Part shown: positions 2,356 through 63,604 of the stretch, piece after piece
Layout: each line of letters opens with the position of its first letter
Numbering within the stretch: position 1 is the first letter of the stretch
Assembly (NCBI GenBank): GCA_964417965.1
Contig: CAYQJX010000004.1
Coordinates: forward strand, 52,405-116,404
Length of the DNA: 64,000 bases
Source: an uncultured Elusimicrobiaceae bacterium
Lineage (GTDB): Bacteria; Elusimicrobiota; Elusimicrobia; Elusimicrobiales; UBA9959
Direction: 5' to 3'
Notes under the pieces: model-generated
Told to the model about the DNA's origin: nothing
What the model saw: the letters and a program-made list of their open reading frames with translations, nothing else
Database searches by the model: none
Position numbers and translations under genes: made by a program

Positions 2356-2517
2356 CACAAAGCTACGGCCGGCCTGTCACCGGGCCCGGAACGCAAAAAC
2401 GGCGTCGCGCACACCGTGCGCGCGCCTGCCGCTCTCGGCCTCGGCGCTTACGCAAGCCTCGGCCTCCGAGAGGCTTTTGCTAACCCGGGCCCGGCGCCAG
2501 ACCTGATTGCCTCAAAT

Positions 2518-3948
2518 CTAATACGCGTTGTAAAGCTCGAGCAGGAGTTCCTCGTGCATTTTGTCGGCGGCGGCGCCGGGCATGGAGTAGTTGTTGAGGA
2601 TGGAGGTGAAGACCAGGGTCTTGCCCTTTTTTGTTTTGAGATAGCCCGTGTAGGAGCGCACGCCGTTGAGCGAGCCCGACTTCAGCCGCAGCCCCTTCTC
2701 CAGCGGCGTCCCCTTGCCCAGCCCCCTGACGTGCCCGGTAGCCTCCGGGTCCCCGGGGTATACCAGCGAGTCGTAAAAAACCGGAAAATAGTTTTTCTTA
2801 GACACCGCGGCCAGCAGGTCCGTGAAGGTTTCCGCCTTCGTCATGTTGCGCCAGGACAGGCCGCAGGCGTCAACCAGCTTCAGCTCGGAAACATCCGCCC
2901 CGTTGACCGCCAGAAAATCCTTTACGGCCGCCAGGCCGGCCTCGGCCTTGCCGCCGCCCAGCTGCCGCAGCAGCAGCTCGGCGTACAGGTTGAAGCTGCG
3001 CTTATTGGTGACCCGCACCGCGTCCTTAAGCGGCCTGGAAACCGTTTCGGCTATGAGCTCGAGCTTCGCCCCCTGCGCCGGCGCCCCCCTGAAAGGCTTT
3101 TTATTGGAGTTAACCCCCGCCCGGGTAAGATAGGCGCCAAAACTCTGCGCCGCGAACAGGGCGGGGTCCGGCAGGGCGCCCTTGATGGCGAATTCCGCGG
3201 CGCCTTGGGGGATGCTGCCGCGCAGCACCGCGGTCGTCTGGCCGGGGAAGGCGTAGATGTAGCCGTTATCGCCCGAGCCGGCGGGACCGGTCTTCATATA
3301 GTTCTCGAACTTAAGCCCCTCCACGAACGGCTCGGTGCGCAGCACCGCCGCTTCGCCGCCCACCCCGGCGGCGGGCTTAAGATAGAGCTTGTAGAGCCCG
3401 TCGTTAGAGGTCAGGGCTGAAGGCTGGGCCGCGTAATAGTTGCCGATGTCCTCCCAGGCCCAGGAGCCAGGCTGCACGCTCTCGAAGGCAGAATCGTCTC
3501 CGACCACGGAACCGTTGACGACGTTTATCCCGGCGGCCTTCACGGCCGCGGCCCACTCTTTAAAAACTTCCTCCAGCGGGCGCGCGTCCTTTATCAGCTG
3601 CGAGCCCAGCGACGGGTCCCCGCTCCCTTTGAGATACAGGTTCCCGTTGAGGAAGCCGTTGACCACGGCGCCGTCGCGGTAGAGCCTGGTGGTGAAGGTT
3701 TTCTCTGGCCCGAGTTTTTCCAGCGCGGCGGCGGCGACGAAAACTTTCAGGATGCTGGCCGGGGTAAGGTTCAGCTCCGGGTTCAGCTGCGCCACGGTCC
3801 GGCCGGAGAGGTCTTTTACGCTCAGGCCCCAGGAGGCGTTCTTGACGCCGGGCGCGGCGGCCAGGGCCCGTATCTTCGCTTTAATATCGGCGGCGTCAGA
3901 CGCGGGAACGAGCGCCAGGAAAGCCAGAGAAAAGAGGATCGTCTTCAT
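2518..3948 (-). CDS. dacB: D-alanyl-D-alanine carboxypeptidase/endopeptidase (PBP4, peptidase S13)
   Basis: N-terminal signal peptide and SxxK motif (ASILK). The length (476 aa) and overall sequence are typical of PBP4. Confidence 0.8.
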   Translation of the reverse strand: MKTILFSLAFLALVPASDAADIKAKIRALAAAPGVKNASWGLSVKDLSGRTVAQLNPELNLTPASILKVFVAAAALEKLGPEKTFTTRLYRDGAVVNGFLNGNLYLKGSGDPSLGSQLIKDARPLEEVFKEWAAAVKAAGINVVNGSVVGDDSAFESVQPGSWAWEDIGNYYAAQPSALTSNDGLYKLYLKPAAGVGGEAAVLRTEPFVEGLKFENYMKTGPAGSGDNGYIYAFPGQTTAVLRGSIPQGAAEFAIKGALPDPALFAAQSFGAYLTRAGVNSNKKPFRGAPAQGAKLELIAETVSRPLKDAVRVTNKRSFNLYAELLLRQLGGGKAEAGLAAVKDFLAVNGADVSELKLVDACGLSWRNMTKAETFTDLLAAVSKKNYFPVFYDSLVYPGDPEATGHVRGLGKGTPLEKGLRLKSGSLNGVRSYTGYLKTKKGKTLVFTSILNNYSMPGAAADKMHEELLLELYNAY

Positions 3949-3991
3949 AGGTGAAAGTATATCAAATCAAAAAATGATAAATTATCCGTCT

Positions 3992-4912
3992 ATGAAACTG
4001 CTGCTCGCCTGTGCCCTCGCCCTGGCCCCCTCCCTGACGCGCGCGGAAGAACCCGCGGAAAAGCGCACCACCCTGGAGATAGAACTTGACCCGTATTACT
4101 CCGCCATAGGCGTCTACAACAGCCTGACCGGCAAGCCCATCCCCCACCTGGAGGTGGAGTCGGAGCTGGAGATCTACCGGGAGCTTATAACCAAATTCTA
4201 CCATCCCCGCACGCTTATCGTAGAAGCGAGCTTAAACCCTATGCCCTACGCCGGCACGCTGATAAAGAGGCACGAGCCCGGCTTTTACAAGGGCATGCAG
4301 TTCGGGGATAATTTCAACGCGGTACAGGCGGCCACGGCCGGCTTCGAAGAGCCGTGGGCGCTCTCCTTCTTCCTCGGCAACGTGGTCTCCTTCGATACCA
4401 TCAACAAGTCCCTGCAGGGCAAGCGCAACGGCTATTCCGGGCTGCTCATAGACCTGGGCACGCACCATATCAAGGACAACGTGCTGATAAGGGAGGGTTG
4501 GATGCAGATGGAGGGCAAGCTGAAAGGCGAGCAGATCCTGGCCGACCGCAGCCTGCGCTGGAGCTTCCGCGGCGGGGCCAAGTTCCACGAGAGCCGCTAC
4601 ATCGCGGATTCTTTCTTCGTGGGCTTCCGGCGCAGCCGCACCGATTTCAAGGAGAAAGGCAGCTTCTGGCTGCTCAACAGCGGTTTCGAATACACCTCGG
4701 ACTTCTCCCAGAAGAAGCTGGAGCCCATACGGCATTACCTGGTGGTGGATAAAAAATTCCCGATGAAGAAGTCCCGCATGGCCTTCACGCTGGGGCTGGG
4801 CTTCGTCTGGACGGCGGACAAAAAATATTCCGGCCCGCTGTCCAACAGCGCCGCCGGAACCAAAGCCCCCAACAGTTTTCAGTTCATCCTAAGGCCCAAC
4901 CTGGAATTCTAG
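3992..4912 (+). CDS. Hypothetical secreted / outer-membrane protein
   Basis: The start was moved to the internal ATG that gives signal peptide MKLLLACALALAPSLTRA. The upstream part of the track ORF is antisense to dacB. The C-terminus ...LRPNLEF ends in Phe, as in OM beta-barrel proteins. I recognise no family. Confidence 0.5.
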   Translation: MKLLLACALALAPSLTRAEEPAEKRTTLEIELDPYYSAIGVYNSLTGKPIPHLEVESELEIYRELITKFYHPRTLIVEASLNPMPYAGTLIKRHEPGFYKGMQFGDNFNAVQAATAGFEEPWALSFFLGNVVSFDTINKSLQGKRNGYSGLLIDLGTHHIKDNVLIREGWMQMEGKLKGEQILADRSLRWSFRGGAKFHESRYIADSFFVGFRRSRTDFKEKGSFWLLNSGFEYTSDFSQKKLEPIRHYLVVDKKFPMKKSRMAFTLGLGFVWTADKKYSGPLSNSAAGTKAPNSFQFILRPNLEF

Positions 4913-6852: not shown

Positions 6853-9030
6853 TCAGGCGGGCTTGTTCTTCAGGTTCAGCAGCCGCTCCACCTCTTCGGG
6901 CGTGGGCTGCTCTATGTTGCGGCATTTGGGGAAGCCCGAGCAGGCCAGGAAGTAGCCCCGCGCGCTCTTGCGCAGCAGCATCGCGTTCTTGCTGCACTTC
7001 GCGCAGATCTTCTCGGTCTTGATCGGGGAGAAGTACTCCTGCTTGTTGCCTTCCTTGTCCAGCGGCACCTTGCCCTTGCACTTGGGAAAGCGCGAGCAGG
7101 ACAGGTACTTGCCGAAGCGGCTCTCGCGCTGCACCATGGGGCTGAGGCACAGCGGGCACTTCTCGTCGGTCTTGATAACGTTCGGGCGGGACTTGGTCAT
7201 GTCCTTTTCCGCCGTGGCGAGCTCTATGGCGAACGGGCCGTAGAACTCCTTCATGAACTTCACCCAGTCCATGGTGCCGTCGGCGATATCGTCCAGCTTG
7301 TCCTCGATGGAGGCCGTATAGGAGATCTCCATGATGTCCTTGAAGAAATCCTTGAGCTTCTCGGTCACCAGGGCGCCCAGTTCGGTGATCAGGAGCTTGC
7401 GGTCCTTTTCCTTGTTGATATAGCCGCGGTCCACCACGTTCTTGATGATCACGGCGTAAGTAGAAGGGCGGCCGATGCCGTGCTTCTCCAGCGTCTTGAT
7501 GATGCTGGCCTCGTTGTAATTGGGCGGGGAGCTGGTCTTGTGCGCCTTGGTGGAGACGTCCTTGAGGACGACGACGTCGCCCTCCTTGAGCGGCGGGAGC
7601 GCCATCGAGCCTTCCTCGTCCTCGCCGGCCACTTCCTCTTCCTTCTCCTCCATGTAGATCTTCAGGTAGCCTTCGAACTTGATGGTGCGCCCGCTCGTGC
7701 GCAGCACGGCGCGCCCCTTGTCGTCGGAGAACTCCACGGAGAGCGAGTCGAAGATCGCCTCTTCCATCTGGCTGGCCATGAAGCGGCGCCAGATCAGGTC
7801 ATAGAGCTTGGCCTGGTCGGGGTTCAGGAACTGGCCGACCTCCTCGGGCCGCTTGTAGGCCGAGGTGGGGTGGATGGCTTCATGCGCTTCCTGCGCGCCT
7901 TTGACCTTCTTAAGATACGTCGGCGGCTTGGCCGGGCAGAAATCCTTGCCGTAGATTTCGGCGATGAACTTGGCCGCTTCCTTCTGCATGTCGACCGACA
8001 CGTTGAAAGAGTCGGTACGCATGTAGGTGATGAGGCCGGAGCGCTCGCCGCCCATCTCCACGCCTTCGTAGAGGCTCTGGGCCACCTTCATCGTGCGGTC
8101 CGAAGAGAAGCCCAGCTTGTTGTAAGCGTCCTGCTGCAGCGTGCTGGTGATGAACGGCGGCTTGGGCTTCTGGCGCACGGCCTTGGCGTCCACCTTGGAC
8201 ACGGTAAGCTTGGAATTGCGCAGGTGGGTGCCGGCCTCCACGGTGTCCTCGAGCTTCTTGAAGACGGAGGTCTTGTAGCGGTAGTCCTCGGCGAAGAGCT
8301 TGAGCAGGATAGTCTGCTCCACGGCGGCGCCGCCCCAGCGCACCAGCTTGGAGTCGAAGTCCTTGTAGCCGCTCTTGTCGCCCTCGGGCATCACCTTGGC
8401 GAGCCTGGTGTAAAGCGTGTAATAGTCCTCTTCCTTGAAGGCGGCTATCTCCTTGGCGCGCTCGGCGATCAGGCGCACGGTCACGCTCTGCACGCGCCCG
8501 GCGGACAGGCCGCTCTTTATCTTGCTCCACAGGAGCGGGGAAAGCTTGTAGCCCACGATGCGGTCTATGATGCGCCGGCTCTGCTGGGCGTTGACCAGCG
8601 CCATGTCCAGGTCGCGCGGGCTCTTGAGGGATTCCTCGATGGCGCTCTTGGTGATCTCGTGGAAGCTGATGCGCTTGAACGGCACGTCCGCCTTGATCGC
8701 TTCCCGGAGGTGCCAGCTGATGGCCTCCCCTTCGCGGTCAGGGTCGGTGGCCAGGTAGATCACGTCGGCGTTCTTGGCGATCGTGTTGAGCTCGGCGATG
8801 ATCTTCTTGGCCCGCTCCACGAGCACGTATTTGGGAGTGAACTCGCCGGCGGTATCTACGCCCAGTTCGTCCTTGGGCAGGTCGCGCACGTGCCCGAAAG
8901 AGCTGCGCACGACATAATTGGCGTCCAGAAAGCGGCTTATCGTCTTTTCCTTGGTAGGAGACTCGACAATGACAAGGTGCCGCTTGGCGGATTTCGAAGG
9001 TTTGTTAGGTTTCTCAGTTTTTTCAGCCAT
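6853..9030 (-). CDS. topA: DNA topoisomerase I
   Basis: TOPRIM start (LVIVESPTKEKTI), active-site region GLITYMRTDS and C-terminal CxxC zinc ribbons. 725 aa. Confidence 0.95.
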   Translation of the reverse strand: MAEKTEKPNKPSKSAKRHLVIVESPTKEKTISRFLDANYVVRSSFGHVRDLPKDELGVDTAGEFTPKYVLVERAKKIIAELNTIAKNADVIYLATDPDREGEAISWHLREAIKADVPFKRISFHEITKSAIEESLKSPRDLDMALVNAQQSRRIIDRIVGYKLSPLLWSKIKSGLSAGRVQSVTVRLIAERAKEIAAFKEEDYYTLYTRLAKVMPEGDKSGYKDFDSKLVRWGGAAVEQTILLKLFAEDYRYKTSVFKKLEDTVEAGTHLRNSKLTVSKVDAKAVRQKPKPPFITSTLQQDAYNKLGFSSDRTMKVAQSLYEGVEMGGERSGLITYMRTDSFNVSVDMQKEAAKFIAEIYGKDFCPAKPPTYLKKVKGAQEAHEAIHPTSAYKRPEEVGQFLNPDQAKLYDLIWRRFMASQMEEAIFDSLSVEFSDDKGRAVLRTSGRTIKFEGYLKIYMEEKEEEVAGEDEEGSMALPPLKEGDVVVLKDVSTKAHKTSSPPNYNEASIIKTLEKHGIGRPSTYAVIIKNVVDRGYINKEKDRKLLITELGALVTEKLKDFFKDIMEISYTASIEDKLDDIADGTMDWVKFMKEFYGPFAIELATAEKDMTKSRPNVIKTDEKCPLCLSPMVQRESRFGKYLSCSRFPKCKGKVPLDKEGNKQEYFSPIKTEKICAKCSKNAMLLRKSARGYFLACSGFPKCRNIEQPTPEEVERLLNLKNKPA

Positions 9031-9120
9031 AAATTAGATATCTATAATATTATATTTTATCCTTATAAGGCAAAGTGTAAGGCTGATTTCCGCCGGATTT
9101 AGCTGTGGGATGGACTCGGA

Positions 9121-9249
9121 GGGGCGGCCGGGGGGATTACCCCGAGCACCCGTTGGGGAAGGGAGGCTCAACCGGTTCCTCCGGTTGAGGGGAACCGCGC
9201 AACGGTTCCCTGCAGTCCGGGTGAGCGGGGTAATCCCCCCGGCTGCCCC
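9121..9249. ncRNA. Candidate structured RNA or MITE-like inverted-repeat element (class unknown) in the dprA-topA spacer
   Basis: A 24-bp closing helix pairs 9121-9144 with 9226-9249 (18 perfect bp plus one G.U on the plus strand). Tandem A.G/G.A sits at 9145-46 / 9224-25. A 6-bp helix pairs 9147-52 with 9218-23. Two adjacent hairpins lie at 9167-9189 (9 bp, loop TTCCT) and 9190-9210 (8 bp, loop CGCAA). A 14-nt purine-rich joiner spans 9153-9166. Confidence 0.4.
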
Positions 9250-9289
9250 AGGAGACATGTTACCGCACCTGCATTGCGCGAAATCAGAA

Positions 9290-10414
9290 CTACACCGCGC
9301 GGCAGTAGCGGCCGTTGCGCGACACCAGCAGCGGCGAAGTCTCCAGCTCGAACAGCGCCGCCGCCGCCCGCTGCACCGGCCAGCCCAGCCGCCCCGTCAC
9401 CTCGTCCGCGCTCAGCCCTTCCTCCGAGGCCGCTATCGCGGTGTAGGCCTCCAGCCCGTCGGGCGAAAGCGCCCGCAGCGCTCCCTCCGAGGGCCCGCCC
9501 GCCGCCGGGCGGAGCCGCAGGCCGAACAACCGCTCCGGCGGGAAACAGGCTATCACGTCCTCGCCGGTCTCCGCCGGGTAAGCCCCGTTCTTGATGAAAT
9601 AATTAGGCCCCCGGCTCACCGGGGAATCCACCGGCCCCGGCACCGCCAGCACCTCGCGGCCCTGCTCCAGGGCGAAGCGCGCCGTTATAAGCGCGCCCGA
9701 CTCGAAGCCCCCCTCCACCACCACCGTGGCCAGCGACAGCCCGGAGATGACGCGGTTGCGCCGCGGGAAATTGGCCGGGAGCGGCCCTTTGTCCAGCGGG
9801 AATTCCGAGACCAGGGCGCCGCCGGAAGCCGCTATCTTATCGGCCAGCCGCCGGTTCTCCTCCGGGTAGATCCTGTTCAGGCCTGTCCCGAGCGCAGCCC
9901 AGGTCACCCCGCCGCTCTCTACCGCCGCCCGGTGGGCCGCCGTATCCACCCCGCGGGCCAGCCCGCTGACCACCGCCACCCCGGCGCCGGCCAATTCCGC
10001 CGCCAGGCGGGCCGCGGTGCGCAGGCCGTAAGGCGTAGCCCGGCGCGTGCCCACTATCGCGGCGGCGGGCAGCGGTTTAAATTCCCCCCGCAGGTACAGC
10101 ACAAGCGGCGGGTCATAGATCTCTTTTAAAAGTTCGGGATAGCCCTCGTCGAGGGCCGTAAGGACGCAAACGCCGCAGCGCTCGGCCGCGCGCAGCTCTT
10201 TCTCCGGGTCGGCCGCCGCCGTCTGGGCGGCCAGGCGATCGGCCGTCTCTCCCATCACGCCGCCTTCCGCCGCTATTTCAGCGGCCGGCCTTTTAAGCAG
10301 CTCTGCCGCGCCCCCGTACAGCCCCATAAGGCGCAGCAGCCAGTCGCTCTTGTGACAGGCGAAGAAGTTAAGGCGCACCCGCGCCAACCGCTCCTCCCCG
10401 GCGCAAACCCCCAT
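9290..10414 (-). CDS. dprA: DNA processing/protecting protein DprA (Smf)
   Basis: Rossmann-like DprA core with GLARGVDTAAHRAAV and VVVEGGFESGALITA. The conserved position upstream of topA fits. Confidence 0.9.
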   Translation of the reverse strand: MGVCAGEERLARVRLNFFACHKSDWLLRLMGLYGGAAELLKRPAAEIAAEGGVMGETADRLAAQTAAADPEKELRAAERCGVCVLTALDEGYPELLKEIYDPPLVLYLRGEFKPLPAAAIVGTRRATPYGLRTAARLAAELAGAGVAVVSGLARGVDTAAHRAAVESGGVTWAALGTGLNRIYPEENRRLADKIAASGGALVSEFPLDKGPLPANFPRRNRVISGLSLATVVVEGGFESGALITARFALEQGREVLAVPGPVDSPVSRGPNYFIKNGAYPAETGEDVIACFPPERLFGLRLRPAAGGPSEGALRALSPDGLEAYTAIAASEEGLSADEVTGRLGWPVQRAAAALFELETSPLLVSRNGRYCRAV

Positions 10415-13068: not shown

Positions 13069-14004
13069 TTATCTGACCAGGCGGCAGATGTCCCGGGCCC
13101 GGGCAGAGGCGCCCCCGGCCTTGGTGACGCGGGCCACGGCGCAGTCGCCGCCCTCGCCGCAATAGCGCTCTACTTCCACCCGGCCTATGTATTCTTCCCG
13201 GTGGCCGATGACCAGGTTGGAGCGGGGATCGCGGATCTCGGCGCCCTGGCGGTAGCAGTCCAGCTTCAGGCCCGGCTCCACGCCGGAATCCTGCCCGGCG
13301 TTCAGATAGAGTTCCTCGCCGGCCGCGTCGGCGACCATGCAGGACCAGGCTTTCTTGTTGAGCTGGCTGGAGATATTGGTGACGAACTGCACCAGCGCGG
13401 CGCGCAGGGCCTCCCCCTCGAGGGTTTCGTCGTAGCCGCCCTTGGTGCCCATGCCCAGGAACGAGGCCTTGGTGGACTTGGCCATGCCTTTGCCGGAGTC
13501 GGCCAGGATCACCTGGCCGCTAGCCACGTCGATAAGCCTCAGGTCCACGGTCACGTCGGCCACCTGGCGCTTGGACTGCGTCAGCAGGTAGTCGGACCCT
13601 TCTTTCTTGACCCCGAACTGCGAAACGGAGCCTACCACTATGGCCTCGAGGCCCAGCACCTGGCCGATCTTCACGGCGGTGGCCGAGTCTATCATGCCCT
13701 GGCCCTGGAACTTCTGCTCTTCCATGATCTTGCTCAGCCGGTCCCTTTCCACCACTATAAATTTGCCGGACTTCACCAGCTCGGTCACCAGGATGTCCGA
13801 GGCGGCGCCGCCGAGGCGGCCCTGCCCGTAGGCGGACTTGTTCTCGAACTCCACCACGCCCACCCGGCGCTTGGGGCCCGTCAGGTCGGATTTGACCTTC
13901 TCGGTCACGTCCACGCTTTGCGCCTGCTGGGTCTTTACCGTTTTGGAAGGCGCGCAGGCCGCTCCCAGGAAAAGAACCGCCACCAGAAAATTAGTTTTAC
14001 TCAT
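13069..14004 (-). CDS. CsgG-family outer-membrane lipoprotein (curli-type secretion channel homologue)
   Basis: Lipobox-like signal (LGAACAP). The CsgG core reads RRVGVVEFENKSAYGQ...ASDILVTELVKSGKFIVVERDRL..IMEEQ. A 4-nt overlap joins it to the upstream gene. Confidence 0.8.
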   Translation of the reverse strand: MSKTNFLVAVLFLGAACAPSKTVKTQQAQSVDVTEKVKSDLTGPKRRVGVVEFENKSAYGQGRLGGAASDILVTELVKSGKFIVVERDRLSKIMEEQKFQGQGMIDSATAVKIGQVLGLEAIVVGSVSQFGVKKEGSDYLLTQSKRQVADVTVDLRLIDVASGQVILADSGKGMAKSTKASFLGMGTKGGYDETLEGEALRAALVQFVTNISSQLNKKAWSCMVADAAGEELYLNAGQDSGVEPGLKLDCYRQGAEIRDPRSNLVIGHREEYIGRVEVERYCGEGGDCAVARVTKAGGASARARDICRLVR

Positions 14005-19514: not shown

Positions 19515-21536
19515 TTAGCGCAGTATAAGGTCCGACACCAGGTCCAGAGCGGCCGTGTGGTTGAAGCTGGACGAATCATAATGCCTGAAGAAGCCGCTGG
19601 CGCCGGAGAAAGTGTTCTCCATCTCGTAGACCTTCTCCTGCGGCACGGCGCCGACGCAGACCAGGCCGATGGCGCCGGTATCGGTCACCATCTGCAGCGC
19701 GACGTTGGCGTTCAGGTCGGCCTCGCATTCGCGCACCGAGGAGCGCTTTACGAACATCGGCTTGGAGGCGGACTTGAGGCAGATGGCGTCCAGTTCGGCC
19801 ATGACGGTGGCGCACAGGGCTTTATCCTCGGGAGCGTAAAGGAAGACCAGCCCCTTGACGCGCTCGGCGGGGATGCCCTCCGGGACGGGCCTTTCGGAAA
19901 GGCCGGCCAGGTCTCCCGCCTGCGAGCGGGAAGTTACGCCGGGGATCTGCCCGGCCTGGAAGATAACGGTTTTCTCTTCGTCCCCGGAAGACCCGGAGGG
20001 AGGAGCGATCACAAGCGTTTCGTCGCCGGACGGCTCCGGAACGGCGGCCGCCGGCTGGCCGGAGAACATGGCGCTGGCGGGTTCAAGCTCTATGCCCTGC
20101 GGCGCGGAAGGCCCGGCGGGCGCCTGGAACTGCTGCGTGCTGTCGCCCTGGCTGCCGACGGTAAGCTCCGCGCCCCCGTCCTGGAGGGCTGGCTCGGCCG
20201 GAGAGCCGAGGGAAATACCGGCGCCGGTCTCGATGGCCGGCTCGGCCGGAGCCTGCACCTGAAGGGTTTCCCCGGCCTGGTCAGGCTGGATACCGAGAGA
20301 AAGTTCCTCTATACCGGGAATGGAGGGCTCGACCGCAGGCTGCGCCTGCAGGGTCTCCACAGCCTGGTCGGGCTGGGCTCCGAGAGAGATTTCCTCTGCG
20401 CCGGCTATAGCCGGTTCCGGCTGCTGGGGTTCGGCCTGCAAGGCTTCCGGAGCCGGCTCCAGACGGAGCGTCTCGCCGGCGTCCTGGGCCGGGGCGGTCT
20501 CCCCGGTGGACGGTTCTATGGTAAAGGCTTCAAAGCCGGTGGGTTCAGGGGTCGCCGGCTCTATGATAAAAGCCTCGGGACCGGCCGCCGGCGCCTGCTG
20601 CGCCTCGGCCTGGAGAGGAATCTCTTCTTTCTTTTCTTCTTCCTGATCGTTGTTCTGCACGATATCCCCCTGCTGCGGCGCTGCCGCTTTAAGCTGTTTT
20701 TCAAATTCCGCGAGTTCGTCTCCGGTGGGCACCGGTTCGCCAGGGTCCGCCGCCGGAGCCAGCGAAGCCTGCGCCAGGGGCGCCTCCGCCTGTTCCGTCT
20801 CCGGGGCTGCCGAAGGCTGTCCTGATTCGGAAAGCTGCAGAAGGGCGTCTATATCCGGGATGCCGAAATCCCTGGTGGTGTCATACTGCCTGGAAGAAGG
20901 CTCTCCCTCCGGCAGGCCGAGCGGGGCCAATTTTATGGGGTCGGCCGATTCGGCCGGGAGGCCGGAAAAAAACGACTCGGGACCGGGCTTCTGCGTCTCG
21001 GCCTCCGGAACGAATTCCTGGCTTAGTTCCTCGGCGGGGGTAAACCCGGCCGGAGCCGGAGCTTCCTCCGGCTGCGGGACGGCGGGGCTTTCGGCAGGGG
21101 GCTGTTGGTTGTTTTGCTCGGCCCCGGCCCCGAACATGAAGTCCCCGAGGCTCTGCAGCTCCATTTTTTCCGCCGCGGGGGGAGCGGGCTGCTCTTCGGC
21201 TTTAGCCTCCGGGGAGGCGGCGCCTTCGGGAAGGCCGGAGAAGGACTGCAGCACTACGGTCTTTTCAGCGTCGAAATTTTGGGCGGCGGGTTCGGGAGCG
21301 GGTGAGCCTTCCTGCAGACCGGAAAAAGGCGGCAGGACTACGGTCTTATCCGCGTCAGCGGAAGGAGGCGGGAGCTTGACCTCGTCCCTGGCCGGCTCGG
21401 GCGCGCGTTCCGCCGGCTGCGGTTCGGGCATCTTTATGCCGTCAAGGATGGACGGCATCTTGTTGAGCAGGCCGTTGAGGTCCGAGAGGATGTCGTCTAT
21501 TGATTCTTTTTTCTTTTTTCCGTCTCTGCTGTCCAT
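19515..21536 (-). CDS. Acidic Pro/Glu/Ala-rich repeat protein (predicted largely disordered) with structured C-terminal domain
   Basis: 673 aa. N-terminal amphipathic segment ESIDDILSDLNGLLNKM, several internal peptide repeats, and a C-terminal region of about 115 aa with normal composition. It lies 7 nt upstream of the AAA+ gene. Confidence 0.6.
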   Translation of the reverse strand: MDSRDGKKKKESIDDILSDLNGLLNKMPSILDGIKMPEPQPAERAPEPARDEVKLPPPSADADKTVVLPPFSGLQEGSPAPEPAAQNFDAEKTVVLQSFSGLPEGAASPEAKAEEQPAPPAAEKMELQSLGDFMFGAGAEQNNQQPPAESPAVPQPEEAPAPAGFTPAEELSQEFVPEAETQKPGPESFFSGLPAESADPIKLAPLGLPEGEPSSRQYDTTRDFGIPDIDALLQLSESGQPSAAPETEQAEAPLAQASLAPAADPGEPVPTGDELAEFEKQLKAAAPQQGDIVQNNDQEEEKKEEIPLQAEAQQAPAAGPEAFIIEPATPEPTGFEAFTIEPSTGETAPAQDAGETLRLEPAPEALQAEPQQPEPAIAGAEEISLGAQPDQAVETLQAQPAVEPSIPGIEELSLGIQPDQAGETLQVQAPAEPAIETGAGISLGSPAEPALQDGGAELTVGSQGDSTQQFQAPAGPSAPQGIELEPASAMFSGQPAAAVPEPSGDETLVIAPPSGSSGDEEKTVIFQAGQIPGVTSRSQAGDLAGLSERPVPEGIPAERVKGLVFLYAPEDKALCATVMAELDAICLKSASKPMFVKRSSVRECEADLNANVALQMVTDTGAIGLVCVGAVPQEKVYEMENTFSGASGFFRHYDSSSFNHTAALDLVSDLILR
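20181..20399 (-). repeat. Tandem coding repeat, 87-bp (29-aa) period
   Basis: Two and a half copies: AEEISLGAQPDQAVETLQAQPAVEP / IEELSLGIQPDQAGETLQVQAPAEP / GAGISLGSPAEPALQDGG. DNA copies are visible at about 20279-20310 and 20366-20397. Confidence 0.7.
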
Positions 21537-35604: not shown

Positions 35605-35627
35605 AGTAGCTCCTTGTTATCGCTAAA

Positions 35628-36608
35628 TTAGTACTGCCCTTTGGCGGCCTCGCCGCCGGAAACTATGGCTATGCTGGCGCTCGTGCCGAGGCGCGTGGCG
35701 CCGGCCTTGATCATGGCCGCGGCCACTTCGGCGTTCTTGATGCCGCCGGAGGCCTTCACGCCCATCTCGGGGCCCACGGTCTCGCGCATCAGGGCGATGT
35801 CCTCGGGAGTGGCGCCTCCGGAGCCGAAGCCGGTGGAGGTCTTCACGAAGTCGGCCTGCGCGGCTTTTGACATTTTGCAGGCGCGGATCTTCTCGTCCTT
35901 GGTAAGATAGGAAGTCTCCAGGATCACCTTGAGCGTTTTGCCGCGCGTGGCGTCGCGCACCGCTTTTATGTCGTCCTGCACCAGCTGGTCGTTGCCGCTC
36001 TTGAGCGCGCCGATATTGATGACCATGTCTATCTCGTCGGCGCCGTTGGCTATGGCGTCACGGGCCTCTATGGCCTTCACGGTCGGGGTCGTAGAGCCAA
36101 GCGGGAAACCGATGACGGTGCAGACCATCACATTGGAGCCGCGCAGCAGGCGGGACGACAGCGCCACGTAGCCGGGGTTAACGCAGACGGAGGCGAAGCG
36201 GTACTTGCGGGCCTCCTCGCAGAGCTTGCCGATCTCTTCCTGCGTGGCGTTGGCCTTGAGCAGGGTATGGTCGATCATGCCGGCGATGGAAGAGCTGGAT
36301 TCGTTGGGGTTGCAGAAAGTCACGCGGTCGGCGGTAGCCTTTATCTGCTGCGGGGTGTATTTATTGAGCGGGTTGCAGCTCTGGCAGGAGGAGGAGCAGG
36401 TGTTCTCTTCGAGCCGGCAATCGCCCTGGCCGGAGCAGGCCTTCTTCTCGGCGGCGCCGGGCTTGTTGACCAGCGGGTGCTGGAACACCTTGCCGGACGA
36501 GCCTATGCTCACATTGTCGCCGAGGGTCTGCCTCGGGGCGGGAGACCCGCCGGCCTTCATGATCCTGGCCACCTCGGCCGCGATTTTCTTTATATCTTCG
36601 TCGTTCAT
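35628..36608 (-). CDS. deoC: Deoxyribose-phosphate aldolase (DERA/DeoC) with ~105-aa N-terminal extension
   Basis: The DERA core begins at [15 protein letters not shown] and includes FASVCVNP and the Schiff-base region DFVKTSTGF. The N-terminal extension carries an EP-like helix and a Cys cluster. Confidence 0.85.
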
Positions 36609-39998: not shown

Positions 39999-40283
39999 TT
40001 ACTTCTTTTTGGCTTCGCTTATCGGCAGTTTGCCTTCCAGGTCGCCGTGAGGCTGCGGGATCACGTGCACGCTCACCAGCTCGCCCACTTTCTGGGCGGC
40101 GGCGGCGCCGGAGTCGCAGGCGGCGCGGCAGGCGGCCACTTCGCCGCGGAAAAGGATGGTCACGAGGCCGGAGCCGATCTTTTCGTAGCCGACTATCTTC
40201 ACGTTGGCGGCTTTCACCGCGGCGTCGGCCGCTTCCACACAGGCCACGAGGCCCTTGGTTTCTATCATTCCGAGTGCGTCCAT
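39999..40283 (-). CDS. BMC-H shell protein (PduA/EutM family)
   Basis: [59 protein letters not shown]...HVIPQP. Confidence 0.9.
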
Positions 40284-46612: not shown

Positions 46613-46647
46613 AAAACCCCGCGCCCAAACCGCGGGGTTTTTATTTT
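46613..46647. terminator. Bidirectional rho-independent terminator
   Basis: AAAA-CCCCGCG-(7 nt)-CGCGGGG-TTTTTATTTT. Confidence 0.75.
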
Positions 46648-46672
46648 GCGTCCATCAAGGTGTAATAAATCT

Positions 46673-46807
46673 GGCGGAGACCGTGCGGGCAGGATAAGCA
46701 AAACCGTCGTTGAGCCCGCCGCTTGCATAAGCGCGGCGGGCGAATACCGAGCGAGGGCACGGTGTGCCCGAGCGTGTTTTGCGTTCCTGCCTGCACGGTA
46801 TGCCGCC
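46673..46807. ncRNA. Candidate structured RNA element (class unknown) between the ytxH terminator and the symporter 3' end
   Basis: Nested helices: 5 bp (46673-77 / 46803-07); 13 bp (46681-93 / 46786-98, with G.U at 46687/46792 on the plus strand); and 7 bp (46698-704 / 46776-82). They enclose hairpins at 46714-41 (9 bp) and 46755-69 (6 bp). Confidence 0.35.
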
Positions 46808-63253: not shown

Positions 63254-63550
63254 ATGACCAAACAAGAAGTCCTGGCCGGGATGAAGAAATATACGCCGTT
63301 TCAGCGGGCGGTGTGGCGGGCCTGCATGAGCATTCCGGAGGGGCAGACGCGCAGCTACAAGTGGATAGCCGGGCGGATAGGCAAGCCCGGCGCGGCGCGC
63401 GCCGTGGGCTCGGCTCTCGGCAAGAACCCTTTCGCGCCCGTGGTGCCCTGCCACAGGGTGATAAAGGCCGACGGCACCCTGGGCGGCTTCTCCGCCCCCG
63501 GCGGCCTCAAGGCCAAGCTGGCCCTGCTAAAAAAGGAAAAAGCCCTGTAA
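63254..63550 (+). CDS. ogt: Methylated-DNA--protein-cysteine methyltransferase, C-terminal domain only
   Basis: 98 aa with active site VPCHRVI and the SYKWIAGRIG helix. Confidence 0.85.
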   Translation: MTKQEVLAGMKKYTPFQRAVWRACMSIPEGQTRSYKWIAGRIGKPGAARAVGSALGKNPFAPVVPCHRVIKADGTLGGFSAPGGLKAKLALLKKEKAL

Positions 63551-63569
63551 GCCCCGCAGTCGCCAAAGG

Positions 63570-63604
63570 AAAAAGCCCGGGAAGTCCCGGGCTTTTTCTT
63601 TTTT
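63570..63604. terminator. Bidirectional rho-independent terminator
   Basis: AAAA-AGCCCGGG-AAGT-CCCGGGCT-TTTTCTTTTTT between convergent ogt and pilC. Confidence 0.75.

Follow-up and report, generated by a model that had tools for sequence, protein, structure and literature searches.

IS608 and ISDra2 transpose with strict strand specificity through a single-stranded DNA intermediate, and the palindrome-associated transposable elements (PATEs) derived from the IS200/IS605 group display conserved internal hairpins, with neither fixed-sequence terminal inverted repeats nor target duplications. Copies of ERIC carry internal insertions at fixed sites, and hammerhead, twister and hepatitis delta virus (HDV)-like ribozymes are often carried on mobile units. 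Correia (CREE/NEMIS) of Neisseria and ERIC/IRU of enterobacteria occupy 100-160 bp of intergenic DNA and are co-transcribed either way into long RNA hairpins; those of Correia are bound by RNase III and then cut or protected (PMC2649163). REP elements and REPINs, associated with RAYT enzymes of the Y1 HUH type, are extragenic, lie mostly at gene 3′ ends in either orientation, keep their hairpins by compensatory change, persist for long at orthologous sites, form mosaics of types, create no target-site duplication and are recognised specifically as single strands (PMC3116915, PMC3337134, bioRxiv 10.1101/2021.07.10.451892). Here, we analysed a 64-kb stretch of DNA from an uncultured Elusimicrobiaceae bacterium (64,000 nt, hereafter the window), whose dprA-topA spacer contains a structured element at positions 9121-9249. 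This element is a member of a dispersed family, called family 1, whose copies preserve a common fold on one strand. We estimate at roughly 55% the probability that it is a copy of a structure-conserving repeat comparable to REP, ERIC and Correia, spreading probably via a single-stranded intermediate.

The element is closed by a long helix, P1, followed by an internal purine loop, a shorter helix, P2, and a three-way junction bearing two adjacent hairpins, P3 and P4 (Table 1). In P1, 18 of the 24 base pairs are perfect and correspond to the 18-mer GCCGGGGGGATTACCCCG and its complement; searching the window for this arm with up to three mismatches returned only the element's own two arms. The first UUG of the purine-rich junction strand may extend P2 (P2a) by pairing with CAG 9213-9215 in the folding model. 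The minimum free energy is -102.1 kcal/mol (z -8.35) on the + strand and -96.0 kcal/mol (z -8.50) on the - strand, and none of 200 shuffled sequences folds as stably. The element is both the longest inverted repeat of the window and the top outlier in a sliding-window fold scan of its whole length. Sequence and folds thus agree with the anatomy that an earlier note on this DNA had described, and Pfam domains identify the flanking genes as the dprA and topA that it had named.

A genome scan with the core 20-mer CCGTTGGGGAAGGGAGGCTC returned seven loci, comprising six full elements and a chance match in an Acidobacterium coding region. The full elements are the ortholog of the window copy in Elusimicrobia bacterium GWB2_63_22, one copy each in AM-2014_bin-1840, GWD2_63_28 and SKS1.bin104 (L066), and two on different contigs in GWA2_62_23; with the window element, they form the seven canonical copies. 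A covariance model (CM R1), built from these elements and run on loci fetched for other reasons, added four more (L068 11138-11260; L070 11145-11264 and 15387-15507; L067 15503-15677). Family 1 thus amounts to 10 independent copies, or 11 sequences when the ortholog is counted, in eight genomes of the groundwater Elusimicrobiales clade of Elusimicrobia, with a unit length of ~120-175 nt. Every copy sits in an intergenic region and follows one or more genes, as a rule 2-40 nt past a stop codon, in either orientation. The sites are unrelated: neighbours include nifS (cysteine desulfurase), a pseudopilin gene followed by rtcB, an ABC-F gene followed by typA/bipA, deoC followed by a bacterial microcompartment (BMC) shell gene, an H+-PPase gene and a class II aldolase gene. 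The functional link to dprA and topA suspected in the earlier note is not supported by this distribution. For copies flanked by genes that read in the same direction, the forward strand (that of the window + strand) runs antisense to those genes in five lineages; in two others it is sense.

Analysis of the 10-copy alignment revealed that 95.9% of the cells are standard pairs and that 28 of the 49 pairs changed on both sides, in an alignment fitted to the model, which favours structure. No shuffle out of 500 attained such figures, and when the partners were slid by 1-3 columns, pairing fell to 37-52%. The raw MAFFT/RNAalifold analysis of the seven copies gave the same picture, with 18 covarying pairs; the slid controls and this result argue for a real covariation signal. 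P1 varies from 20 to 26 bp across the family and has a different sequence in every copy, the pairing being kept; double changes affect 22 of the 32 P1/P2 pairs. P2 also covaries (CACCCG, AACCG, AACCCG and CGCCCG, each with the fitting 3′ arm), and so do six of the nine P3 pairs, with 100% of cells paired over the 10 copies. The P3 arms read CUCAACCGG, CUCAAUCGC, CCCCGCC or CUCAGGCC and enclose loops of 4-12 nt (UUCCU, UCCG, GCUA, GUUA, GGCA and 12-nt loops). A pseudoknot between GGAA of the purine run and UUCC of the P3 loop had been proposed; the complementarity exists in some copies and is not conserved. Between P1 and P2, six of the seven canonical copies have a 2x2 internal loop (AG/AG, GA/GA, AA/GG or AG/CA), and L061 has a 1x2 loop (A/GA) instead.

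The centre of the element behaves differently. In P4 (GGGAACCG-CGCAA-CGGUUCCC), none of the eight pairs varies among the 10 copies. The purine junction is also identical in the seven canonical copies, an invariance that arises partly by construction because the scan pattern covered it; near-invariance is nevertheless seen in the four copies found with the covariance model, where the junction reads UUUGGGGAAGGGGG or UUUGGGGAGGGGAGG according to the subtype. In L061, the 3′ junction (CCGCGGGC) carries three substitutions, all of which retain the predicted P2a through G.U/G-C and U-A/U.G exchange. Finally, L066 (4061-4108) and L067 (15590-15640 approx.), although of different subtypes, contain, within the P4 loop, the same structured extension of 46 nt, which forms two small UAU-capped hairpins, one helix of which is compensated (GAGC/GCUC versus GCGC/GCGC).

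Both stability and base substitutions single out one strand. Without flanks, all seven canonical copies are more stable, by 2-17 kcal/mol, on the strand that matches the window + strand, and with 12-nt flanks 10 of the 11 sequences favour this strand, the exception being L060, the ortholog of the window copy. The P1 and P2 helices of six independent copies contain 15 G.U pairs and two A.C mismatches (one-sided binomial p ~0.001), an A.C mismatch on the + strand being a would-be G.U pair on the other. The plus-strand fold deduced in the earlier note from a G.U pair and tandem G.A is confirmed by this imbalance and by the stabilities. As the bias is present at antisense loci (9:2) and at sense loci (6:0), it is tied to the element and not to local transcription. 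It is likewise independent of replication, since a second family of elements described below (family 2) occurs in opposite orientations in the PeptS13-MacB spacer of L070 and L071; a GC skew test of orientation against replication was uninformative. Selection for folding therefore acts on the window + strand, regardless of which way the neighbours run; this strand could be RNA or single-stranded DNA.

This asymmetry bears directly on a possible action as double-stranded DNA, either as a cruciform-prone palindrome or as paired protein operators (AACCG-N5-CGGTT twice, 22 bp apart). The P3 and P4 hairpins of the canonical subtype do have AACCG/CGGTT half-sites in common, two helical turns apart, and the long inverted repeat adjoins a supercoiling-sensitive gene. 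However, a 15:2 ratio of G.U to A.C is meaningless in a duplex, P3 becomes CCCCGCC or CUCAGGCC in other subtypes while P4 is unchanged, and both half-sites change together in GWA2_62_23. We regard this explanation as very improbable.

Comparison of orthologous sites revealed that copies come and go, unconnected to any gene class. The spacer from deoC to a BMC shell gene is an empty site in the window (Table 1), while the same spacer measures 188 nt in SKS1.bin104 and harbors a full family-1 copy at 3985-4154. In L065, a full copy is directly followed by a 33-nt remnant (1537-1570) consisting of a P2′ and P1′ arm, of which 28 of 33 bases match the P2′/P1′ end of the window-type element although genome and locus differ; the full copy beside it has a different P1. 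As the empty site has no hairpin and a window-like P1 remnant recurs at an unrelated locus, P1 travels with the element, and the idea that P1 was borrowed from a pre-existing host hairpin was rejected. Depending on the genome, three spacers of the syntenic block (dprA-topA, aldolase-305-aa gene and PeptS13-MacB) are filled by one of the two families or by both, or are empty.

The dprA-topA spacer was followed through relatives whose dprA loci, labelled L0xx, were taken from metagenomes and assemblies. The closest is GWB2_63_22 (L002 = L053 = L060), with a 95% identical dprA protein; the others are metagenome-assembled genomes (MAGs) of groundwater or sediment Elusimicrobiales. The spacer varies from 56 to ~260 nt. 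Family 1 occupies it in the window, GWB2_63_22 (L002) and L054, where the copy is cut off by the contig end, and in diverged versions in L068 and L070. Family 2 is found there in L003/L055, L071 and L073, only a 17-nt piece (GGGAACTGGCCCCGCGC) equal to part of the L068 P1 arm in L007, L011 and L013, and neither family in L049, L067 and L072. A common insertion boundary, sought among these relatives, was not found. The last ~55 nt of the spacer, corresponding to the topA promoter and leader, are nearly invariant, including in relatives at 76-81% dprA identity, whether the spacer carries family 1, family 2, a remnant or nothing. Because relatives devoid of the element keep this promoter, the element is dispensable for topA expression. 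Its position upstream of topA's own promoter implies that it is probably absent from the topA mRNA.

These observations leave very little room for a locus-specific cis-element, acting as a dprA terminator or 3′-UTR stabiliser, or, through its minus strand, as a regulator of topA translation by means of the anti-Shine-Dalgarno-like sequence CCUCCC, as the earlier note had envisaged. Such a role would fit the location 40 nt past the dprA stop codon, the -96 kcal/mol hairpin of the minus strand and a topA gene with no obvious Shine-Dalgarno sequence. Nevertheless, the same element stands beside unrelated genes, in antisense at four or more loci, its selected strand is the opposite one, and topA keeps an identical promoter and leader in relatives that lack it; a leader or riboswitch of topA was rejected on these grounds, and the anti-Shine-Dalgarno proposal has to be abandoned. 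An intrinsic terminator was also rejected: no U-tract follows the hairpin, the flanking sequence being TCCGAG... on the - strand and AGGAGA... on the + strand, and no terminator-like site was detected in 8800-9500 on either strand, although canonical terminators exist in the window (e.g. 46613-46645 and 63565-63602). The 74-aa open reading frame (9034-9258, - strand) that spans the whole element was likewise rejected as coding; the ortholog carries a 1-nt deletion in each arm, and these paired deletions shift the frame across an identical interior, which makes the frame spurious.

Other evidence points to constraint on the resident copy. Between the window and GWB2_63_22, the 81 nt separating the P1 arms show no change, even though divergence is 11-14% at the fourfold degenerate sites of dprA, topA and comM and ~17-30% in the spacer flanks; the probability of observing no change in 81 nt is ~6e-5. 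The three P1 changes relative to the ortholog all keep the + strand fold, a C>T change producing a G.U pair and a substitution and 1-nt deletion being mirrored in both arms. The absence of change in the interior implies either selection in place on the resident copy or its homogenisation by gene conversion from other copies.

Such constraint fits the main rival of the repeat reading, in which the copies would be paralogous genes for a small structured + strand RNA that acts in trans or binds protein. In that case P1 would shield the RNA ends, or RNase III would trim it, and the functional surface would consist of the purine junction together with the invariant P4. Strong covariation, strand-specific G.U pairs, an invariant junction, variable loops and an optional structured domain are all expected of such an RNA, as is purifying selection on the core in place between orthologous copies, and a + strand promoter-like site (TTTTCA-17-TATAAT, 9020-9048) lies upstream in the window, arising from a near-palindromic TATAAT region. 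Against this, no promoter or terminator is common to the copies, five of the seven having no forward promoter-like site within 200 nt. The copies are also non-syntenic among relatives at ~80% protein identity, where the same spacer has the other family or nothing; they are dense (~1 per 16 kb for the two families), form a tandem cluster in L067, and have left decayed remnants. A Bacterial Y RNA, suggested by the rtcB neighbour, was rejected, with no TROVE/Rsr gene within 3 kb and no Rfam match. Overall, we consider the small RNA unlikely, but the combination of variable termini around an invariant centre, the lack of target duplication, the in-place conservation of the core and the optional domain keeps it alive.

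A catalytic function was also considered, with the three-way-junction core as a new class of self-cleaving or otherwise catalytic RNA on a mobile unit. Invariant junction strands and one invariant hairpin amid variable helices, dispersed copies, and closing-stem and optional-domain lengths that vary would suit a ribozyme. However, the Rfam 15 ribozyme models gave no match even at E<=10, hammerhead core motifs (CUGANGA/GAAA) and those of other known ribozyme classes are absent from the element sequence, and most copies are antisense to local transcription; this possibility appears improbable.

More generally, the 4227 models of Rfam 15 gave no match at gathering score over the whole window, in keeping with the earlier note, which had recognised no riboswitch, signal recognition particle RNA, 6S RNA, tmRNA or RNase P. 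Around the element, lowering the threshold to E<=10 retrieved only generic long-hairpin microRNA models (E>0.02), the best being a plant microRNA precursor at 21.8 bits for a threshold of 77.5. At eight other copy loci, Rfam 15 found only tRNAs and a c-di-GMP-I riboswitch elsewhere, and in L067 only microRNA noise. No match to plasmids or phages was obtained by blastn, viral contigs scanned with a P4 22-mer and with a family-2 two-block pattern gave 0 matches each, and six-frame peptides of the element compared with 5.8 billion proteins in search of miscalled copies yielded 1942 word candidates, none at E<=10. A literature search on Elusimicrobia structured RNAs or miniature inverted-repeat transposable elements (MITEs) found nothing relevant.

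Against this background, the element was compared with the systems introduced above. It resembles REP/REPIN-RAYT elements in all the properties listed for them, but has no GTAG-type head. Furthermore, REPINs combine inverted copies of one palindrome and conserve their arms (REPs) around a varying spacer, whereas family 1 is the reverse, with a fixed centre, variable arms and a three-way junction in which P3 and P4 are two unlike hairpins, neither being an inverted copy of the other. A RAYT gene was not encountered, a genome-wide search not having been made. Correia and ERIC resemble family 1 in size, intergenic location, co-transcription either way and long RNA hairpins, and the internal insertions of ERIC are comparable to the optional 46-nt P4 domain. 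No sequence similarity links them to family 1, however, and their termini are conserved inverted repeats, with a TA duplication for Correia, as opposed to variable termini and no duplication here. We know of no report of strand-specific G.U selection for either.

With PATEs, family 1 has in common the absence of fixed-sequence terminal inverted repeats and of target duplication, conserved internal hairpins and strand specificity; the ends of PATEs do not pair, whereas those of family 1 form a 20-26 bp helix, and the hairpins of family 1 are central instead of subterminal, with no TnpA known to accompany them. The base immediately 5′ of P1 on the forward strand (-1) is an A in eight of 11 copies, often within AA or GGA, and no matching bias exists in the 3′ flank. 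This A could reflect a weak target preference or a compositional effect; it could also reflect insertion 3′ of a short target, as for IS200/IS605, although no fixed tetranucleotide is seen. A classical, DDE-derived MITE would account for dispersed copies with presence and absence among relatives. This half of the MITE alternative of the earlier note stands, and its other half fails, because no target-site duplication is found and the P1 arms differ at nearly every position, only their pairing being kept. The functional RNA that the note had opposed to it is also half right: the covariation that would support it is abundant, but the copies are dispersed and vary in presence among relatives, and dispersal was what the note took as the mark of a mobile element. 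Orphan structured RNA motifs (Rfam type "Gene; sRNA") are, like family 1, defined by covariation, restricted to one lineage and endowed with conserved junctions, variable stems and optional hairpin extensions; family 1 differs in being non-syntenic and dense, with remnants and tandem clusters, and has no match in Rfam 15.

The element therefore lacks defining traits of each of its nearest kinds (REP/REPIN, ERIC/Correia, IS200/IS605 and orphan Rfam motifs), yet by analogy it plausibly works like the first three, as a bacterial structured intergenic repeat. The repeat reading can be detailed as follows. Family 1 would be a non-autonomous element that spreads, or once spread, through a single-stranded intermediate, whether DNA or RNA, and whose conserved core would be recognised in trans. 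Strand specificity independent of transcription and replication, the lack of a common promoter and the lack of a U-tract suggest that folding serves the propagation of the element itself through such an intermediate, which is how REP/REPIN-RAYT and IS200/IS605-type elements operate. Between dprA and topA, the resident copy would do no more than add a hairpin of high stability (-96 kcal/mol on the mRNA strand) to the 3′ region of dprA, upstream of the topA promoter. It could be a read-through barrier or an RNase III target and not a dedicated regulator, its only effect being that of a stable structure carried in read-through transcripts, as is the case for ERIC and Correia.

Several observations weigh against this reading. 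First, no direct repeat flanks the 11 family-1 or the 10 family-2 copies, so that target-site duplications are missing, and the termini are not conserved. Secondly, conservation is higher in the core than at the ends, contrary to the pattern of classical MITEs and REPINs. Thirdly, the unchanged 81 nt of the resident core would not be seen in an insertion that is purely selfish and decaying. In addition, the compensated 46-nt P4 domain is typical of functional structured RNAs, and no candidate mobilising enzyme was identified, whole genomes not having been searched.

The second family was first recognised through the kinship of the L003 element to two window regions, which, with the dprA-topA element, are the three strongest folds of the window. 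Family 2 is built like family 1, its long, variable P1 leading through an internal loop to P2 and a pair of hairpins, but has an unrelated core (apical loop CUUGCGUAAGCG, hairpin GCACGGUGUGC). A covariance model (CM R2) gave ten copies in all, with 91.9% of cells paired and 32 of 49 pairs covarying, which 0 of 500 shuffles matched; nine of the ten favour one strand. Merging both families into one was rejected, since MAFFT cannot align the cores and each model misses the other family. In L067 (15329-15677), family 2 on the - strand lies beside family 1 on the + strand in one convergent spacer, a pair that recalls BIME-like mosaics. The two families together amount to ~13 elements in ~210 kb; extrapolation of this density, if representative, would give of the order of a hundred or more elements per genome.

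Four contigs (L001, L054, L056 and L058) stop 45-46 nt inside a family-1 or family-2 element just past dprA. As these independent short-read contigs all end in elements, de Bruijn assemblies seem to break at the long inverted arms, and copy numbers in MAGs are probably underestimated for this reason.

Family 1 is new, and its function is unproven. An uncultivated phylum contains two structured families, backed by covariation and represented by 10 or more copies apiece, that Rfam 15 lacks. They reverse the pattern usual for bacterial repeats: the ends are free, the centre is fixed and one strand is selected to fold regardless of gene direction. A resident copy is moreover conserved well beyond neutral expectation. 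If mobile, they would point to a structure-reading mobilisation mechanism in Elusimicrobia; if they are RNAs, they would constitute a new orphan class with a modular domain. A bolder and doubtful proposal is that both families form a new class of mobile elements defined by a folded single strand and moved by an enzyme that has so far not been associated with substrates of this type, or that the core is a new ribozyme or protein-recruiting RNA module kept by hosts. It would jointly explain strand-specific covariation, purifying selection on resident copies and turnover at the same spacers. In practice, such elements are easily mistaken for locus-specific regulators, as the initial reading in terms of topA control illustrates.

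Table 1. Coordinates of the family-1 element, its neighbours and related sites in the window
Feature	Position	Strand	Description
P1 5′ arm	9121-9144	+	GGGGCGGCCGGGGGGATTACCCCG; pairs with 9226-9249, 24-bp closing helix
2x2 purine internal loop	9145-9146 + 9224-9225	+	Symmetric AG/AG; fold prediction
P2 5′ arm	9147-9152	+	CACCCG; pairs with CGGGTG 9218-9223
Purine-rich junction strand	9153-9166	+	TTGGGGAAGGGAGG, 14 nt
P3 hairpin	9167-9189	+	CTCAACCGG-TTCCT-CCGGTTGAG
P4 hairpin	9190-9210	+	GGGAACCG-CGCAA-CGGTTCCC; invariant family hallmark; directly abuts P3
Junction strand	9211-9217	+	TGCAGTC; between P4 and P2 3′ arm
P2 3′ arm	9218-9223	+	
AG of internal loop	9224-9225	+	
P1 3′ arm	9226-9249	+	
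dprA	10414..9290	-	Pfam DNA_processg_A 2e-73; stop codon 40 nt from element
topA	9030..6853	-	Pfam Toprim, Topoisom_bac, Zn_ribbon_Top1
topA promoter and short leader	9031-9085	-	AT-rich; TTTGCCTTATAAGGATAAAATATAATATTATAGATATCTAATTT-ATG; context, outside element
Empty site, deoC-to-BMC-shell-gene spacer	35605-35630	-	23 nt, hairpin-free; comparison with SKS1.bin104
Family-2 copy	2368-2506	-	Between convergent genes; CM R2 139.9 bits
Family-2 copy	46670-46807	+	Between convergent genes, adjoins canonical terminator; CM R2 125.6 bits

Around the element, a LysM gene and a comM-like gene precede dprA-topA, and a xerC/D-like gene follows. Promoter-like hexamers are present on the - strand at 9081..9044, and topA is possibly leaderless or provided with a very short leader. 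In all relatives, dprA is preceded at a distance of a few kb by a gene with a DnaA domain (L053 and L067-L073, ~7-9 kb upstream), so the block may be near a replication origin. In L069, a group II intron maturase (GIIM) fragment is found just after topA (13566-13919), and the c-di-GMP-I riboswitch of L068 maps to 20734-20824.

Elsewhere in the window, a second BMC-domain gene near 40026-40280 makes a microcompartment locus likely. Canonical intrinsic terminators, with G+C stems flanked by A/T runs and apparently bidirectional, occur at 46613-46645 and 63530-63604, from which it follows that the organism uses U-tract terminators. Lastly, L063 of GWA2_62_23 carries an unrelated, perfect 27-bp inverted repeat (GGGGGACGCTGCACAATAACTCAATAAC...) at 2930-3022, between fumarase and ankyrin genes; at most 3.2 kb from a family-2 and a family-1 copy, it represents a third kind of long-hairpin insert.

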